A DNA stretch of 64,000 bases from an uncultured delta proteobacterium (GTDB taxonomy: Bacteria > Myxococcota_A > Polyangia > Polyangiales > B10-G4), in the NCBI GenBank assembly GCA_963727445.1, contig CAVSGI010000018.1, positions 18,086-82,085 on the forward strand, written 5' to 3'. Positions 41,604-49,149 of the stretch are shown here, piece after piece. The notes beneath the pieces were generated by a model. That model saw only the letters and a list, made by a program, of their open reading frames with translations. It searched no databases and was not told the origin of the DNA. The stretch's first letter is position 1; each line of letters begins with the position of its first letter. Both the position numbers and the translations under genes were made by a program.

Positions 41604-41619
41604 GGGGGCGGTGACAGGC

Positions 41620-42228
41620 ATGCTCGTCTACGCCATGGCTCAGGAGCCGCCCAGGTCCGAAACCCGAGAGGTGCCGGGCCACGACGGCCGCAGCATCGAA
41701 CGCTCGGCGCGTTCGGGGGATCGGGACGCCCTCGCTGCGCTCCTGCGCGAGCACGGACCGGCGATCGGGCAGCTCTGCCACTTCGTCGCGGGCCCCCGCG
41801 ACGCCAAGGACGCGGCCCAGGAAGCTTTCGAGAAGATCGTCGTCAACATCACGAAGTTCGACCCCGACAAGGGTTCCTTCCGCAGCTGGGCGCTCACCGT
41901 CGCGCGCAACGCCTGCCGCGACCGCCTCCGCCGTCGCGGCCTCGAGAAGCGCACCTTCCTCGCCGACGGAGAGACACAGACCGAGCTCGCCAAGACCAAG
42001 GCGCCCGACCCCGAGCGCCTCGCTGTGGCGCGCGCCGGGACCAGCCGCCTGACCGAGGCGCTCGGCACGCTCCCCGAAAATCAGCGGACGGCCATCGTCC
42101 TGTTCCACTTTCACGAGGCGACCTACGAGGAGATCGCCGCTACCCTCGACGTGCCGATGGGAACCGTCATGACCTGGCTGCACCGCGCGCGGAAGAAGCT
42201 GCGCGCCGCCATGGAGGCGGACGCATGA
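41620..42228 (+). CDS. ECF RNA polymerase sigma factor
   Basis: DAKDAAQEAF, FRSW..VARN, region 4 YEEIAATLDVPMGTVMTWLHRAR. Confidence 0.93.
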   Translation: MLVYAMAQEPPRSETREVPGHDGRSIERSARSGDRDALAALLREHGPAIGQLCHFVAGPRDAKDAAQEAFEKIVVNITKFDPDKGSFRSWALTVARNACRDRLRRRGLEKRTFLADGETQTELAKTKAPDPERLAVARAGTSRLTEALGTLPENQRTAIVLFHFHEATYEEIAATLDVPMGTVMTWLHRARKKLRAAMEADA

Positions 42229-44078
42229 GCGCGCACCTCGACGAGGTCGCCCTCGAGGCGCTCGCCCACGGCCGCAACGACCTCGTGCCCGACGAGGAGC
42301 GCCTGCACGTCGCCGGCTGCGCCGAGTGCGGCGCAGCCATCGAGGAGATCCGCCGCGTGTCGAAGGACCTCTCCTTCGCCCTCGCCGCCGAAGCGCCCGA
42401 GCTCCCCGACCTCGACGCGATCATCGCGGGCGCCCTCGAGAAGGCGCCCGATCCCGCCTACGCCCGGCCGCCGCTGGCGGTGCTCGCCGGCGCCGGCCTC
42501 GCCGGTCTGGTGGCGGCGGCGGTCCTCGGGTTGCTCGCGCTTCCGAGCGCCACCTCGGTGGTGAGCTTCGTTCACGATGCGATCGCCGTCGTCGGCGGCG
42601 TCGACCGCGTGGTCACCGCCTTCGTGCCGGGAGGCTGGAGCCTCATCGCGCTCACCGGCTTCTTCGTGCTGGCGATCCTCGCCGTGCCCTTCAGTCGCCT
42701 GCTGCGCCCGGCCGCCGCCGGCGCCGCGAGCTCCTCGGTCTTCAGCGTGCTCGGGTTGGTCCTGGTGGTGGGCTCCTCGCTCTTCTTCGCGCCGAATGGC
42801 GCCTTCGCGCTCAGCTTCGAGGGCGAGTGGCCTTCGCCCGACGAAGGGCATCTGGTGTCGCTCTCGATCGACGATCAGCCGCTCAACGACGCGCTCCGAG
42901 ACGCGGCCTCGGCCGCGGGCCTCGGCTACGTCTCCCAACTCGCCGCTTCCGAGCGGCGCGTGAGCCTCGAGGTGCAGGACGCCGAGCTGCGCGTGGTGAT
43001 CGAGACGCTCCTCGGTGACGCGCGGGTGATCGCGCGGCGCACGCCGACGGCGCTGGTGCTCGTCCCGGACGCGTCCGAGCCCGAGGGCGCCGGTGACGAC
43101 GAGGTGGACGAAGAAGCGCTGCCGACCAAGCAGCAGCCCCAGCATCCGGCGCTCACCGTACCGGTCGTCCCGGAGGTGCCGCCGGTCCCCGGTGTGCCCG
43201 CGGCCCCCGCTGCGCCGCCCCTTCCCCCCGACGTGGATCTCGCGCACCTGCCGGATCGCGAGACCTTCGGCGGAGACGTGCACATCCGGCCGGGCGAGGT
43301 GGTGCGTCACGTCACCTCCACCGGCGGCGACGTCGAGGTCGAGGGCACCGTCTACGGCAACGTCACCAGCATGGGCGGCGACATCGAGGTGCGGGACGGC
43401 GGCGTGGTCCACGGCGAGCTGGTGAGCATGGGCGGCGACGTCGAGATTCGTTCCGGCGGCGCGGCCTACGGTCAGATGGTCACCATGGGCGGTGAGGTCG
43501 ACATCGAGGAGGGCGCGATCGTGACCGGCGCGCGCGTCACGATGGATCCGCCCGACGCCCCGGCGGCGATCGAGGCCGAGGCTGGGAGCGAGCACGGCGG
43601 ATTCGGCGCCTGGGTGAAGGAGTCGGTCGAGTCGGCGGCCCGACACGCGATCCTCTTCGTCCTCGGCATCTTCCTCCTCGCACTGGCGCCGGATCGCCTC
43701 GGCGCCCTCAGGCGCACCATCGCGCGCGCGCCGCTGCGCACCGCCGCCACCGGCCTGATGGGCATCGTGGGAACGGTGGTGCTCACGGTGATCCTCGCCA
43801 TCACCCTGATCGGCATCCCCGCCGCCATCGTCCTCGCCATCGTCGCCTTCCTCGGCGCTTACGTGGGTCTGGTCGCTTGTGCGTCGGTGCTGGGTGCGGC
43901 GCTGCCGACGGCCCGCCTGAAGGATCGCCCGATCCTGCAGCTGGGCGCGGGTGTGGCGGTGCTCTTCGTCGTGTCGCTGGTGCCCGGGATCGGCGGCCTT
44001 CTCACGGTGATCGCCGCGCTCGTCGGCTATGGCGCCGTGATCCTGACGCGGTTCAGGGCAGTGGCGTACGGCGACTGA
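42225..44078 (+). CDS. Putative anti-sigma factor fusion (ZAS-like HxxxCxxC, TMs, STN-like, bactofilin-like repeats, TMs)
   Basis: HVAGCAEC; ATGA overlap with the sigma gene; five GGD/E[VI] beta-helix-like repeats; multiple TM segments. Confidence 0.7.
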   Translation: MSAHLDEVALEALAHGRNDLVPDEERLHVAGCAECGAAIEEIRRVSKDLSFALAAEAPELPDLDAIIAGALEKAPDPAYARPPLAVLAGAGLAGLVAAAVLGLLALPSATSVVSFVHDAIAVVGGVDRVVTAFVPGGWSLIALTGFFVLAILAVPFSRLLRPAAAGAASSSVFSVLGLVLVVGSSLFFAPNGAFALSFEGEWPSPDEGHLVSLSIDDQPLNDALRDAASAAGLGYVSQLAASERRVSLEVQDAELRVVIETLLGDARVIARRTPTALVLVPDASEPEGAGDDEVDEEALPTKQQPQHPALTVPVVPEVPPVPGVPAAPAAPPLPPDVDLAHLPDRETFGGDVHIRPGEVVRHVTSTGGDVEVEGTVYGNVTSMGGDIEVRDGGVVHGELVSMGGDVEIRSGGAAYGQMVTMGGEVDIEEGAIVTGARVTMDPPDAPAAIEAEAGSEHGGFGAWVKESVESAARHAILFVLGIFLLALAPDRLGALRRTIARAPLRTAATGLMGIVGTVVLTVILAITLIGIPAAIVLAIVAFLGAYVGLVACASVLGAALPTARLKDRPILQLGAGVAVLFVVSLVPGIGGLLTVIAALVGYGAVILTRFRAVAYGD

Positions 44079-44081
44079 CGC

Positions 44082-44693
44082 TCAGGGATCCAACAGCGTC
44101 CGGAGCAGCTTCCAGTCCCGCATCTGGTCGGCCCATGGCCTCTGGATCGTCGCGCGCGCGCCCGGGTGATAGAGCGGCAGCACGAAGCGATGGTTCCAGC
44201 GGTGCACCTCTCCCACGTCCCACTTCAAGGTGAGTGTGTGCGGGGCGATCACCGCGAGCGACATCAGCGCCGTGGCGCCGAGGGTCACGATGATCGCCGG
44301 GTCGAGGGCGTCGATCAGCGATTGTACGAAATGGGTGCAGCGCTTCACTTCGGCCTTGCTCGGCTTGCGGCCCTCGCCGGCCTCCGTCTTCGGGCTGCAG
44401 AGCACCGCGTTGGTGATGAAGAGCTCGTCGCGCGAGAGGCGCGCGGCGGAGAGCAGCTTCTCGAAGGCGTCGCCGGTGCGGTCGCCCTTGAGCGGCACGC
44501 CGGTGGACGCGGCTCCGTGAAAGCCCGGCGCCTCGGCAATCACCAGACAGCGCGCGCTCTCGTCGCCGTTCGCTTCGGAAAGGACCCGCGGTCGGCCGTG
44601 CATCGTCGTGCAGCGCGTGCACGACTGGGCATCGGCGATGATGGTCGCGAGGCTGCTCCTCGCGCTACTCGTGGCCGCGCTCGTCCCTCCCAT
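44082..44693 (-). CDS. Uracil-DNA glycosylase, family 4-like
   Basis: CTRC, IAEAPG, ITNAVLCSP, VTLGATA, LYHP. Confidence 0.85.
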   Translation of the reverse strand: MGGTSAATSSARSSLATIIADAQSCTRCTTMHGRPRVLSEANGDESARCLVIAEAPGFHGAASTGVPLKGDRTGDAFEKLLSAARLSRDELFITNAVLCSPKTEAGEGRKPSKAEVKRCTHFVQSLIDALDPAIIVTLGATALMSLAVIAPHTLTLKWDVGEVHRWNHRFVLPLYHPGARATIQRPWADQMRDWKLLRTLLDP

Positions 44694-44783
44694 GGGCGAA
44701 GAAGGGTGCGCGGAGCCGGGCGGGAGCGCAACGTACTTTCTGTACTCGTTCGTACTGCCGAAAAGAGCTGCTAGGCTGCACCC

Positions 44784-46094
44784 GTGGCCGACCGACCCGA
44801 TCCACTCTCCGGCGACGAGCGCGACGCGCTGATGGGGCAGGCGCGCCCGCGCACGGGCCTCCCCATCGCGCCTCATGCCCCCCCCGCGCGACGTCATCTT
44901 CCTCTCGCTGCCGAGGCCCGCGACATCGATCGGCGCTATCGCCCGATCTACGCGGTCTGGGAGATCACCCTCGCGTGTGACCTGGCCTGCCGACATTGCG
45001 GCTCGCGCGCCGGCCACGCGCGTCCCGACGAGCTCAGCACCGAGGAGTGCCTGGACCTGGTCCGTCAGATGGCGGAGATGGGCGTCAAGGAGGTCAGCCT
45101 GATCGGCGGCGAGGCGTATCTGCGCGACGATTGGGTGGACATCATCCGCGCCGTGAAGGCGCACGGCATGACGCCGCTCATCACCTCCGGTGGACGCGGC
45201 TTCACCGAGGAGCGGGCCCGCGCCGGCGCCGAAGCGGGTCTCGCCAGCGTCAGCATCTCCATCGACGGAAACGAAGCGACCCACGACCGGCTACGCGGCG
45301 TGAAGGGAAGTCACGCGGCAGCCCTCGCCGCGCTGAAGAACCTCCGCGCCGCGGGCGTTCGCGTCTCCACCAACACGCAGATCAACCGCCTCAGCATGCC
45401 GGAGCTCGAGGACGTCCTCGACACGATCATCGAAAACGGCGGTCACAGCTGGCAGATCCAGCTCACCGTCGCGATGGGTCGCGCGGCCGACGAGCCCGAG
45501 GTCCTGCTCCAGCCCTACGACCTGCTCGAGCTCTTCCCGCTCCTCGCGGAGCTGAAGAAGAAGTGCGACGAAAACGGCGTGCGCCTGTGGCCGGGGAACA
45601 ACATCGGCTACTTCGGCCCTTACGAATCCGTGCTGAAGGGCACCATGCCCCGCGGCCACATGGCCTCCTGCGGTGCCGGGCGCGGCACTCTGGGCATCGA
45701 GGCCGACGGGACCATCAAAGGCTGCCCATCACTGACCACCACGCCCTGGGGCGGCGGGAACATCCGCGACAATTCCCTGCAGGACATCTGGGAGCGGGCC
45801 GAGCCCCTGCGCTACACCCGCGATCGCACGGTGGAGGACCTCTGGGGCTTCTGCCGCGACTGCTATTACGCAGACGAGTGTCGCGCCGGCTGCACCTGGA
45901 CCAGCCAGGTGCTCTTCGGCAAGCCGGGCAACAACCCCTACTGCCATCACCGCGCCCTCGAGCGGCAGCGCGAAGGCAAGCGCGAGCGCATCGAGCGCGT
46001 ACAGGAAGCGCCAGGGTTGCCCTTTGATCATGGAGAGTTTCGTCTCATACTCGAAGACGACCCGGCGGCCTCGAAGGCCGGCGGAGGAGGTTGA
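44784..46094 (+). CDS. Radical SAM/SPASM peptide/protein maturase, PlpX (splicease)-like
   Basis: YAVWEITLACDLACRHCGSRAG, WQIQLTVAMGRAAD, PGNNIGYFGPYE, GIEADGTIKGCPSL, CRDC..CRAGC, NNPYCHHR, PFDHGEF; extended -10 TGcTAGGCT 6 nt before the GTG. Confidence 0.88.
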   Translation: MADRPDPLSGDERDALMGQARPRTGLPIAPHAPPARRHLPLAAEARDIDRRYRPIYAVWEITLACDLACRHCGSRAGHARPDELSTEECLDLVRQMAEMGVKEVSLIGGEAYLRDDWVDIIRAVKAHGMTPLITSGGRGFTEERARAGAEAGLASVSISIDGNEATHDRLRGVKGSHAAALAALKNLRAAGVRVSTNTQINRLSMPELEDVLDTIIENGGHSWQIQLTVAMGRAADEPEVLLQPYDLLELFPLLAELKKKCDENGVRLWPGNNIGYFGPYESVLKGTMPRGHMASCGAGRGTLGIEADGTIKGCPSLTTTPWGGGNIRDNSLQDIWERAEPLRYTRDRTVEDLWGFCRDCYYADECRAGCTWTSQVLFGKPGNNPYCHHRALERQREGKRERIERVQEAPGLPFDHGEFRLILEDDPAASKAGGGG

Positions 46095-46101
46095 AAGACT
46101 C

Positions 46102-46603
46102 ATGGCCCGCTTGCTCCCTTGTCCTGGCTGCGAACGTCACGTGCGCATCACCGAAGCGCTCTGTCCCTTCTGCGGCGACGCCCTGCCGATGAGCTATCAG
46201 AGCGCCGGCCCGGCGCCGCTGCCCAGAGCGCGCCTCGGTCGCGCCGCGAAGTTCGCCTTCGGCGCGGCGGTCGCAGGCGCGCTCGCGGTGACCGGTTGTG
46301 GAGACGACGGCACCGCGGGCGACACCGGCGTCGTCGACACCGGCACCCTCGACTCCGGCGGCGCCCTCTACGGCGGAGCCCCTGACGTCGGCCCCGCGGA
46401 CACGAGCGCGGGCGACGACGAGCGCGGGCGACGGCAGCGCGGGCGACGGCAGCGCGGGCGACGGCAGCGCGGGTGACGCGTCCACCGACTCCGGCTCGAT
46501 GGCCCTCTACGGCGGTCCGCCTGTGGACTCCGGGGCGGCGGATGGCTCCTCGGGCGGCGACAGCGGCCCGGCCCCACTCTACGGCGCGCCGCCGTCGGCC
46601 TGA
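46102..46603 (+). CDS. Putative radical SAM substrate: Zn-ribbon + lipobox + low-complexity tail with three LYG motifs (+1 frameshift near 46417)
   Basis: GGAGGAGG RBS; CPGC..CPFC; LAVTGC; LYGGAP, LYGGPP, LYGAPP when the two reading frames are joined (about 166 aa). Confidence 0.75.
46405..46480 (+). repeat. Five-copy 15-bp tandem repeat AGCGCGGGCGACGGC (SAGDG)
   Basis: Directly visible; the first copy is 16 nt, which breaks the frame. Confidence 0.9.
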
Positions 46604-48071: not shown

Positions 48072-49149
48072 TTACGTCGGCTCCGCCGGCCGGCTTCCCT
48101 CCGCTGCCCACGAAAGGGGCCGCGGGCGCAGGGTCGACAAGGGGCGGGGCGGCGGCGAAGGGCGGGAGCTCCGCCGGGCGCGCCGCGCACGGGGCAGCTT
48201 CACGTCTTTCTGCGTGCCGCCGCTGAAGAAGGCGGCGATGTCCTCGCGCCGGACCTTCGAGGCGTCGGGGACGGCGCCGAGGAGGGCCCGCTCGAAAGCC
48301 TGGGCGGTCTCGAAGCGGCCGTCGACGTCCGGGTCGAGGGCGCAGGCGAGCACCGCCTCGAGGGCGCGAGGCACACCGCTGCGCACGGAGGAGAGCGGCC
48401 GCCGGTGCGGGCGGGCGACGTTCATCAGGAGCGAGTGCTCGGAGCGACCGAGGGCGTAGCGGTGCAGCGTCAGCATCTCCCACAGAACCACCGCCAGGGA
48501 GTAGATGTCGGCGCGACGATTGAGGCCGCGGCTCCGCACCTGCTCGGGCGACAGGTAGCGAACCTTGCCGCGGATGCGGTGGCCGGTGGTGTCGTAGTGG
48601 CGACCGCGCGCTTTGGCGATCCCGAAGTCGATGAGCTTCACGTCGCCCTGCTCGGACAACAGAATGTTGCCCGGGCTCACGTCGCGATGGACGAGGTTCA
48701 AGAGCTCGCCCTCTTCGTCGCGGGCCTCGTGGGCGGCGTGCAAGCCCCGCGCGGCGCGCACCACGATGGCTATTGCGATTCTCGTAGGGCAGAAAGGTGC
48801 CGGCGCGTGCGAGGGCGTCGAGGTGCTGCGCCAGGGAACGGCCGGGGACGTACTCCATCACGAGGTAGTGTCGCCCCCCATCCTCGCGGAGGGCCTCGAC
48901 GCGCGCGACGTTGGGGTGGTCGACGCGGCTGGCGAGGCGCGCCTCGTCCCGGAACATGGCGAGAAAGCCGGGGCGGTCCGCCAGATGCTCGTGCACCACC
49001 TTGATCGCGACCTGGCGCATCCCGGCGGGACAGCGGACGGCGCCCAAGTAGAGGGTGGCCATGCCCCCGGCTCCGAGGCGCGACAGTACGTGGTGTTCTC
49101 CGAGCGCTTCTCCGACGTCGACCAAGCCTCTACCTCCGAGCCCCACCAA
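48072..49149 (-). CDS. Serine/threonine protein kinase (frameshift near 48775)
   Basis: LGAGGMA, VAIK, HPNV in one frame; HRDVSPGN, DFGIAK, YLSPEQ, DIYSL in another; start uncertain. Confidence 0.85.

Follow-up and report, generated by a model that had tools for sequence, protein, structure and literature searches.

A splicease-like radical SAM enzyme and its conserved zinc-ribbon, lipobox partner with Tyr-Gly sites in Myxococcota: a candidate pathway to keto-amide lipoproteins

The stretch of DNA analyzed here (the window, 64,000 nucleotides) is part of contig C18 (CAVSGI010000018.1) of an uncultured delta proteobacterium of the Polyangiales, whose assembly of 9.47 Mb in 27 contigs is 85.6% complete. 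It carries the gene of a radical S-adenosylmethionine (SAM)/SPASM enzyme and, after an intergenic gap of 7 nt (46095-46101), a small gene for a putative substrate protein, which starts with an ATG at 46102 and is split between two reading frames (Table 1). The Shine-Dalgarno-like sequence GGAGGAGG of the small gene is located within the 3′ end of the enzyme gene, suggesting translational coupling. Frame A reads MARLLPCPGCERHVRITEALCPFCG...RLGRAAKFAFGAAVAGALAVTG-C66-GDDG...ALYGGAP...TSAGDD and comprises, in this order, a four-Cys ribbon, a Pro-rich linker, the segment R42-A-R-LGRAAKFAFGAAVAGALAVTG-C66 and a tail rich in Asp, Gly, Ser, Thr and Ala; frame B, within the open reading frame (ORF) 46298-46603, reads (SAGDG)n...ALYGGPP...PLYGAPPSA up to its stop codon. 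Joined, the two frames give about 166 residues, with the LYG tyrosines at 90, 136 and 160, and after Cys66 neither F, W or H nor any further Y is found in the used parts of both frames. The initial annotation of this DNA had described the gene pair, the 7-nt gap, a strong ribosome-binding site, the split small ORF and the Tyr codons at 46369, 46508 and 46580 as the sole aromatic positions of the tail, all of which direct reading of the sequence bore out.

Table 1. Position of the enzyme gene, of the substrate gene and of the elements within them (window coordinates).
Feature	Position	Strand	Details
Radical SAM/SPASM enzyme, splicease-like maturase	44784..46094	+	436 aa ORF, GTG start, TGA stop 46092-46094
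Shine-Dalgarno-like GGAGGAGG	46083..46090	+	11 nt ahead of substrate ATG; read from sequence
Substrate gene, frame A, residues 1-106	46102..46419	+	Zn ribbon, linker, signal-like helix, lipobox, acidic tail, first LYG
Four-Cys zinc ribbon C7-x2-C10...C21-P-F-C24, with nearly invariant R12-H13-V14	46120..46173	+	alignment, model
Signal-peptide-like R42-A-R-LGRAAKFAFGAAVAGALAVTG, ending in lipobox V-T-G-C66	46225..46299	+	predicted signal peptidase II site
Site 1, A-L-Y90-G-G-A-P	46363..46383	+	Tyr codon 46369-46371
15-nt tandem repeat AGCGCGGGCGACGGC, SAGDG units, 4.9 copies	46405..46478	+	first unit 16 nt
Single extra base, frame A to frame B, approximate position	46420..46420	+	codon-by-codon reading
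Substrate gene, frame B, 60 codons and TGA 46601-46603	46421..46603	+	SAGDG repeats, sites 2 and 3
Site 2, A-L-Y-G-G-P-P	46502..46522	+	Tyr codon 46508-46510
Site 3, P-L-Y-G-A-P-P	46574..46594	+	Tyr codon 46580-46582, 7 codons ahead of stop

The enzyme combines the radical SAM and SPASM domains of the spliceases, as it matches Pfam Radical_SAM at residues 60-198 (4.1e-23) and SPASM at residues 296-361 (1.8e-08), with C65, C69 and C72 as the CxxxCxxC cluster motif; by Pfam, only Radical_SAM, SPASM and Fer4_12 were found, and neither a Y protein nor a RiPP (peptide made by the ribosome and modified after its translation) recognition element. The best NCBIfam match was TIGR04103 (nif11-class peptide radical SAM maturase 3; 506.5 bits, E 4.3e-152), which we take to be the family registered as IPR026482, and the second-best was TIGR03913 (GDL motif peptide-associated maturase; 500.4 bits, E 3.8e-150). 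The next family reached 155.8 bits, and sactipeptide, pyrroloquinoline quinone (PQQ) and mycofactocin maturases are among the other matches. The splicease PlpX is placed in IPR026482 in the consulted section of a review (PMC11002830). The signature motifs VWEITLxC, GNN[IVL]GY[FY]GP and G[ND]NPYC were kept, apart from a few single substitutions, in 16 of 18 aligned sequences, references included, with degenerate forms in the two rows that are most distant. An annotated TIGR04103 enzyme of Nostoc is 54% identical to the window enzyme, and the GDL-type enzymes of Azospirillum, which adjoin DUF1843 proteins, are 51-53% identical. A search of the PDB returned no close solved relative, the best hit being SkfB (1.2e-24); the excerpt of PMC11414181 states that none had been solved as of that paper.

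In a quick tree built by maximum likelihood from 49 sequences, with branch support from the Shimodaira-Hasegawa-like approximate likelihood ratio test (SH-aLRT) and with plasmid-encoded reference enzymes named by their annotation, the window enzyme belongs to a myxobacterial clade of 25 rows (SH-aLRT 94), weakly sister (80) to the GDL-type branch. A larger clade of 45 rows (85) unites it with the Nostoc nif11-class maturase 3 and the GDL-type enzymes of Azospirillum, Ralstonia and Aureibacter, the Nostoc reference lying in the basal polytomy of this clade and the distant radical SAM/SPASM proteins outside it. The initial annotation had called the enzyme a PlpX-like splicease and proposed a check by hidden Markov models and phylogeny. 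Scores, tree and motifs support its membership of a splicease-related superclade that includes an annotated TIGR04103 member, while a closer assignment to PlpX was not fully borne out, given the scores under the family cut-offs and the position nearer to the TIGR03913 branch, in a tree with a polytomy at the base of the clade and references known by annotation. Since the scores are below the cut-offs and the branching is nearer to the TIGR03913 side, the enzyme is splicease-related by its sequence ('splicease-like') and is an equivalog of neither TIGR04103 nor TIGR03913.

For the partner, the 124-residue N-terminal product of the split gene has 77 homologues, each given source name being 'hypothetical protein' and the organisms, where given, being Sandaracinus amylolyticus, Sandaracinaceae and a 'Deltaproteobacteria' metagenome-assembled genome (MAG). 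In an alignment of 32 partner sequences C21-P22-F23-C24, G46, R47, A48, F53 and A55 are invariant, and C7, C10, R12-H13-V14, C66, Y90-G91 and a C-terminal Y-G...P are conserved in at least 90% of the rows, as is the C-terminal xLYG[AG]PP site (columns 247-251). No Pfam or NCBIfam family matched the substrate above threshold, and neither a DUF1843 match nor a GDL motif was present; zinc-ribbon Pfam matches below threshold were obtained for 20-22 of the 32 members. The Atlas clusters of the family are unnamed and come from Myxococcota, and its structural neighbours are 'zinc ribbon domain-containing proteins'. This agrees with the earlier proposal that the substrate is not a Nif11-type precursor.

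The segment after the linker resembles a lipoprotein signal, with the positive residues R42, R44, R47 and K50, the hydrophobic stretch FAFGAAVAGALAV and the lipobox V-T-G-C66, and 93 of 107 non-redundant members fit the pattern of Arg, hydrophobic run and [GAS]-Cys. A Tat (twin-arginine translocation) signal was considered and rejected because no twin arginine is conserved in RLGRAA. In 93 family tails, Tyr is followed by Gly at 241 of 246 tyrosines, with Gly making up 21% of the tail residues, so that the pairing is more than chance; F, W and H together account for 79 of the 7892 residues. The site consensus is [PA]-[LAPV]-Y-G-[AG]-P-P, and each protein has one to six sites, most commonly two. 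A ribbon/lipobox protein of Labilithrix luteola DSM 27648 (L109:4080-4568, +) reads I-P-I-Y-A-A-A-P and has no YG; it may be a natural variant.

The association of the two genes was surveyed across genomes. An enzyme homologue at E <= 1e-60 is encoded in 32 of 61 related genomes, the window genome (G000) included, and one to three ORFs with zinc ribbon, lipobox and YG adjoin it at 24 of 29 relatives' loci. A GTDB-wide scan retained 588 relatives among 599 candidates, of which the best 80 were taken for the locus figures that follow. Apart from one bin labelled Acidobacteriota, these records are of myxobacterial type throughout and include Labilithrix luteola DSM 27648 and Polyangium jinanense SDU13. 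The strict partner pattern was found at 50 of the 80 loci, in 75 ORFs, 73 of them on the strand of the enzyme (57 downstream, 16 upstream), 1 on the opposite strand and 1 unclassified. Thirty loci did not fit the pattern; in nine of them the downstream flank is shorter than 700 bp, and among 13 others inspected six have variants: L087, L089, L103, a fusion (L094), the YA protein (L109) and an enzyme-fused ribbon (L116). Enzyme and partner are a conserved pair and Tyr-Gly is its conserved site, which sustains the initial description of the adjoining ORF as a partner with zinc ribbon, lipobox and xYG sites and answers its proposed search for such ORFs beside homologues in other myxobacteria.

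Each of seven window neighbours matches at most 6 of 109 loci, and in these 109 loci no conserved protease, transporter, sigma/anti-sigma, uracil-DNA glycosylase (UDG) or 316-aa secreted protein gene was found beside the cassette. The conserved unit is therefore the enzyme with one or more substrates, without a protease or transporter. Among 201 evenly drawn Myxococcota genomes, 53 have an enzyme match at E <= 1e-100, a count that includes more distant enzyme clades.

The complex of the two proteins was modelled from enzyme residues 51-436 (9 aligned rows) and substrate residues 1-105 (32 aligned rows) with SAM and three 4Fe-4S clusters. The interface score ipSAE was 0.89 (0.87, 0.89 and 0.90 in the single runs) and the best of three controls reached 0.00; the pass mark is one that 116 of 157 solved complexes attain, as against 2 of 215 mismatched pairs, counts that hold only roughly here because the alignments were custom-made and ligands were included. 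Between runs, at least 55% of the contacts agree, and the predicted local distance difference test score of the partner is at least 56. On the substrate side the modelled interface includes residues 1-4, 6, 10-13 and 22 of the ribbon, 38-58 with the RLGRAAKFAFGAAV helix, and 86-96 (GGALYGGAPDV), the last of which, with the LYG, face inner-barrel positions of the enzyme; the contacts of lowest error join substrate 10-13 to enzyme 277-282 (NNIGYF, full-length numbering). The passing model thus places zinc ribbon, signal helix and LYG site on the enzyme, and it lends support to the idea that LYG enters the barrel. As presented in excerpts of Richter et al. (PMC11414181), AlphaFold models of PlpX, PcpX and RhaX show the XYG at the active centre, with an activating site taken up by a leader helix, an arrangement that the window model mirrors, with YG in the active site and a leader element on the enzyme.

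Taken together, we consider it on balance probable that the locus is a two-gene, Y-less splicease-type cassette whose leader is an extended lipoprotein signal peptide. In the cytoplasm, the enzyme would bind the precursor via the N-terminal zinc ribbon (C-x-R-H-V strand) and the RLGRAAxFAFGAA helix, which, judging from the model, may act together as leader and activator, and the disordered acidic tail would be threaded into the barrel. At each [PA]-L-Y-G-[AG]-P-P, a tyramine unit would most likely be excised, leaving a backbone alpha-keto-beta-leucine amide at up to three sites, as the enzyme family and the site motif suggest; in the accessible parts of PMC11626197, PMC11414181 and PMC10533398, known spliceases act at XYG, LYG included. 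RLGRAA...VTG-C66 would serve as the lipoprotein signal, so that after export by the Sec pathway Lgt would lipidate Cys66 and signal peptidase II would remove the zinc ribbon along with the signal. Both lipidation and cleavage at Cys66 are predicted from sequence, and we infer this route (Sec, Lgt, Lsp) because the lipobox is conserved and no protease or exporter is linked. If these steps occur as proposed, the general lipoprotein pathway would supply the leader protease, the exporter and the lipidating step.

What results would be a disordered, acidic lipoprotein some 100 residues long that bears up to three keto-amides. A lipid-anchored surface protein and protease inhibition had already been put forward as possibilities in the initial annotation. 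Most plausibly, the lipoprotein would inhibit or trap Ser/Cys proteases from its membrane tether, a function proposed by analogy because Leu-derived keto-amide spliceotides, according to the available text of PMC11626197, inhibit elastase and chymotrypsin at sub-micromolar half-maximal inhibitory concentrations. In a wider reading, which we advance tentatively as a possibility slightly less likely than not, the family would represent a RiPP-like pathway that uses the housekeeping lipoprotein machinery, and its product a 'lipo-spliceotide', that is, an anchored disordered protein with several alpha-keto-beta-amino warheads. There, the leader, a zinc ribbon with an unusually conserved lipoprotein signal peptide, would recruit and activate the splicease, perhaps keeping the signal covered until modification of the tail, and would next direct Sec export, lipidation and its own removal by signal peptidase II.

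Several other explanations of the locus have to be weighed. It is very improbable that the small ORF is a chance neighbour and not the substrate of the enzyme, as adjacency on the same strand is conserved across the phylum, the sites are co-conserved and the complex scored 0.89 against 0.00 for the controls. More has to be said about the frameshift. Past T-S-A-G-D-D (46402-46419) frame A turns to Arg-rich nonsense that ends with a stop at 46476, and skipping one base at about 46420 joins both frames, the break lying within the 16-nt first repeat unit. As the gene is frameshifted in the assembly, the count of three sites needs read-through. An indel in the assembly is the likeliest cause of the frameshift, since a kinase gene at a distance of 2 kb is split too, 1 of 92 ORFs is affected and the ortholog from the same genus (P0003, 144 aa) has an intact frame. 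The split gene is a Ser/Thr kinase downstream on the minus strand (N-lobe 48765-49149, C-lobe 48072-48764), broken near 48765 with Pfam Pkinase positions 2-90 and 118-258 lying in different frames, and this second frameshift within 3 kb of the cassette hints at indel errors in the assembly; the one ORF of 92 in which YG motifs run on in another frame (window and 109 related loci) is the window copy. Among the sequencing runs searched, none contained the window stretch (best word share 0.12), and four runs mapped at 85% likeness gave short fragments of relatives only, with no contig spanning 46405-46425. A recent true slippage in the repeat could also have occurred. The gene might then be a genuine pseudogene or truncated allele, so that the cell would make either no product or one of 124 residues that has a single LYG and ends in an Arg-rich tail, and the enzyme would serve two unlinked substrates; the frameshift is present in the assembled sequence, the break sits in a slippage-prone tandem repeat, and two intact family members are encoded elsewhere in the genome without an adjacent radical SAM gene (C1:50918-51439 and C2:4465-4866). 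We regard this as unlikely, given the second split gene in a 27-contig assembly and the rarity of such a break among the surveyed ORFs, and the out-of-frame part keeps two perfect sites and the C-terminal end of the family, so that any break would be very recent.

The fate of the signal-like segment and the chemistry at Tyr-Gly allow alternatives of their own. The partner could be a bitopic inner-membrane protein with a cytoplasmic ribbon, an uncleaved hydrophobic anchor and the modified tail in the periplasm, since the hydrophobic segment begins about 45 residues in, behind a folded domain, and a zinc ribbon followed by a transmembrane segment and a disordered tail is a common bacterial layout, in keeping with the structural neighbours. 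This is distinctly unlikely in view of the [GAS]-Cys that directly follows the hydrophobic run in most members, the conservation of Cys66 and the Arg/Lys residues ahead of the helix, which are like a signal n-region; moreover, a paralogous clade also keeps the Cys (A-C-Y-G or G-C-x-Y-G, 10 of 10 loci), of which a plain transmembrane anchor has no need. Equally, the same pair might perform a cross-link, hydroxylation, epimerization or C-C coupling at Tyr-Gly with no tyramine excision, which would suit an enzyme below both equivalog cut-offs, whose nearest branch (GDL/DUF1843-associated) has no characterized member in the literature searched and whose radical SAM/SPASM relatives are chemically diverse, as the maturases among its matches illustrate. 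We hold such a chemistry to be rather improbable, as the Tyr is nearly invariant and Gly follows it, which is the known requirement of spliceases, the enzyme is 54% identical to an annotated PlpX-type enzyme, and [PA]LYG[AG]PP closely resembles both ALYGLPP of Nostoc and the splice tag RPLYGLPI given in the excerpt of PMC10533398. Against tyramine excision in a lipoprotein, which we prefer, speak a number of observations. The enzyme is under both curated cut-offs (506.5 < 725 and 500.4 < 591.75 bits) and groups, weakly (80), with the uncharacterized GDL/DUF1843 branch and not with the PlpX-type reference, in a tree whose reference enzymes come from plasmid records and whose sole 'type I' reference is named by annotation. 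The signal is not at the extreme N-terminus, a 41-residue extension with the zinc ribbon preceding it and the lipobox Cys being at position 66, an atypical layout for a lipoprotein, and lipobox position -3 is often A or T in the family and not L. The adjacent protein of L. luteola has YA in place of YG, the complex score is a measure of model confidence, and the window gene is itself frameshifted, with no source reads from the run search.

Among known systems, the cassette is closest in composition to the binary pairs RhaX/RhaA, RcsX/RcsA and RasX/RasA of Rheinheimera, which, as described in portions of PMC11414181 and PMC11626197, also consist of a radical SAM/SPASM enzyme and a precursor without a PlpY-like protein. 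They likewise target XYG motifs, LYG included, and have a leader element that binds the enzyme, activation by a leader helix having been described there (PMC11414181, excerpt), and their keto-amide products inhibit Ser/Cys proteases according to the same parts of the two papers. In contrast, and comparing descriptions rather than sequences, the window leader joins a zinc ribbon to a signal of lipoprotein type where theirs is soluble and helical, members of its family bear one to six sites on a tail that is long, acidic and disordered, a lipid anchor is predicted for the product, and no protease or transporter gene is linked. With type I systems (PlpX/PlpY/PlpA, PcpXYA), the window enzyme shares TIGR04103 as best match and the signature motifs. 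The Nostoc locus, type I by annotation, encodes a Nif11 precursor with the core ...ALYGLPPELF, its ALYGLPP being the same local motif as the window sites, and a small downstream ORF for a PlpY-like protein. Unlike these, the window cassette has neither a Nif11/NHLP leader nor a Y protein, scores below 725 bits and belongs to Myxococcota instead of Cyanobacteriota.

The TIGR03913 GDL family is the nearest branch in the tree (80), and a 75%-identical homologue (P0095) bears the TIGR03913 name in NCBI, whereas the window enzyme is below 591.75 bits and its partner lacks DUF1843 and GDL motif. No characterized function for the TIGR03913 family was found in the literature searched. DUF1843 proteins with GDL of an Azospirillum sp. 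B510 plasmid (L133:3305-3760) and of Aureibacter (L134) also contain YG (RPYGPA, AAYGDVP), so that this family may act at Tyr-Gly as well. A pairing of radical SAM/SPASM enzyme and lipoprotein is also the mark of TIGR04133 and TIGR04134 ('radical SAM/SPASM protein with associated putative lipoprotein', hypothetical equivalogs), but the window enzyme is of a different branch (154.4 bits against the TIGR04133 cut-off of 425) and its substrate has the zinc-ribbon extension. Radical SAM/SPASM enzymes modify proteins before translocation in the case of the anaerobic sulfatase-maturating enzyme and of QhpD acting on QhpC. There, as is proposed here, a protein that bears a signal is modified by radical chemistry in the cytoplasm before it is exported, with a different chemistry and a different enzyme branch; we know of no case in which the signal peptide of those systems is the recognition element.

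To our knowledge, tyramine splicing has so far been described for small secreted peptides and engineered proteins. Among the top-ranked matches listed in our literature search, none tied spliceases to lipoproteins, zinc ribbons or myxobacteria, and the terms 'signal peptidase' and 'lipoprotein' are absent from the text of a 2023 review of RiPP leader proteases. The work of Scott et al. 2022, as summarized in passages of PMC10849128 and PMC10533398, mined YG enrichment near radical SAM/SPASM genes and arrived at 939 predicted and 27 characterized systems in 189 genera; such mining would probably catch Sandaracinus or Labilithrix, and the family may therefore already be catalogued. On the reading preferred here, membrane-tethered keto-amides that block proteases may be present in the myxobacterial cell. 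If this is true, cell-envelope lipoproteins across Myxococcota, a phylum of predatory, protease-secreting bacteria, would regularly bear beta-amino keto-amides in their backbone, as a widespread and as yet unnamed feature, and a RiPP pathway would have a new way to dispense with a dedicated protease and transporter. Protein engineering would gain splice tags of natural origin, multi-site and leader-defined, together with a zinc ribbon as docking handle, and a prediction testable by mass spectrometry could be made for about a quarter of the sampled Myxococcota genomes (53 of 201).

Some further observations concern relatives of the two genes. The two intact substrates elsewhere in the window genome (L130 and L131, both on the minus strand) have two YG each and are far from splicease-like genes; one enzyme may serve three substrates in this genome. 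The same genome encodes a paralogous enzyme of about 50% identity with its own partner type (C20:457897-462150, L002). This paralogous clade (L002, L036, L120-L125, L127 and L129) is accompanied by a different zinc-ribbon/lipobox partner with a single Tyr-Gly directly after the lipobox Cys, as A-C-Y-G at 8 of 10 loci and G-C-x-Y-G at 2 of 10. If such a site were spliced, the lipidated Cys itself would become a beta-amino acid.

A third enzyme clade (SH-aLRT 100) consists of L126 and L128 (genomes G024 and G035) and L135 from a Tropicibacter plasmid. Its myxobacterial partners are zinc-ribbon/lipobox proteins with Glu/Pro-rich tails and E/A/M/R-Y-G sites, and its Tropicibacter relative adjoins trypsin-like and M23 peptidase genes. 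Other enzyme ORFs carry substrate-like parts. In a Polyangiaceae MAG (L094:2641-4440, +), the radical SAM ORF continues in frame to a hydrophobic segment, a lipobox-like G-C and three xYGPA sites, and is either a natural enzyme-substrate fusion or the result of a lost stop codon. In the Acidobacteriota-labelled bin (L116:2875-4419, +) the enzyme has a C-terminal CxxC...CPHC ribbon and is positioned in the GDL-type branch; it is reminiscent of the fusion of leader to enzyme that Richter et al. 2024 engineered. The enzyme ORFs of L034 and L037 end in the YG tails ...EKYGAPPMRK and ...CECDYGEPPPPQCCP, which may be self-substrate tails or read-through. Upstream of the cassette in the window, 41611-44078 (+) and 44082-44750 (-) hold genes for an extracytoplasmic function (ECF) sigma factor, for a 617-aa membrane protein without a Pfam match, possibly an anti-sigma factor, and for a member of the UDG superfamily.

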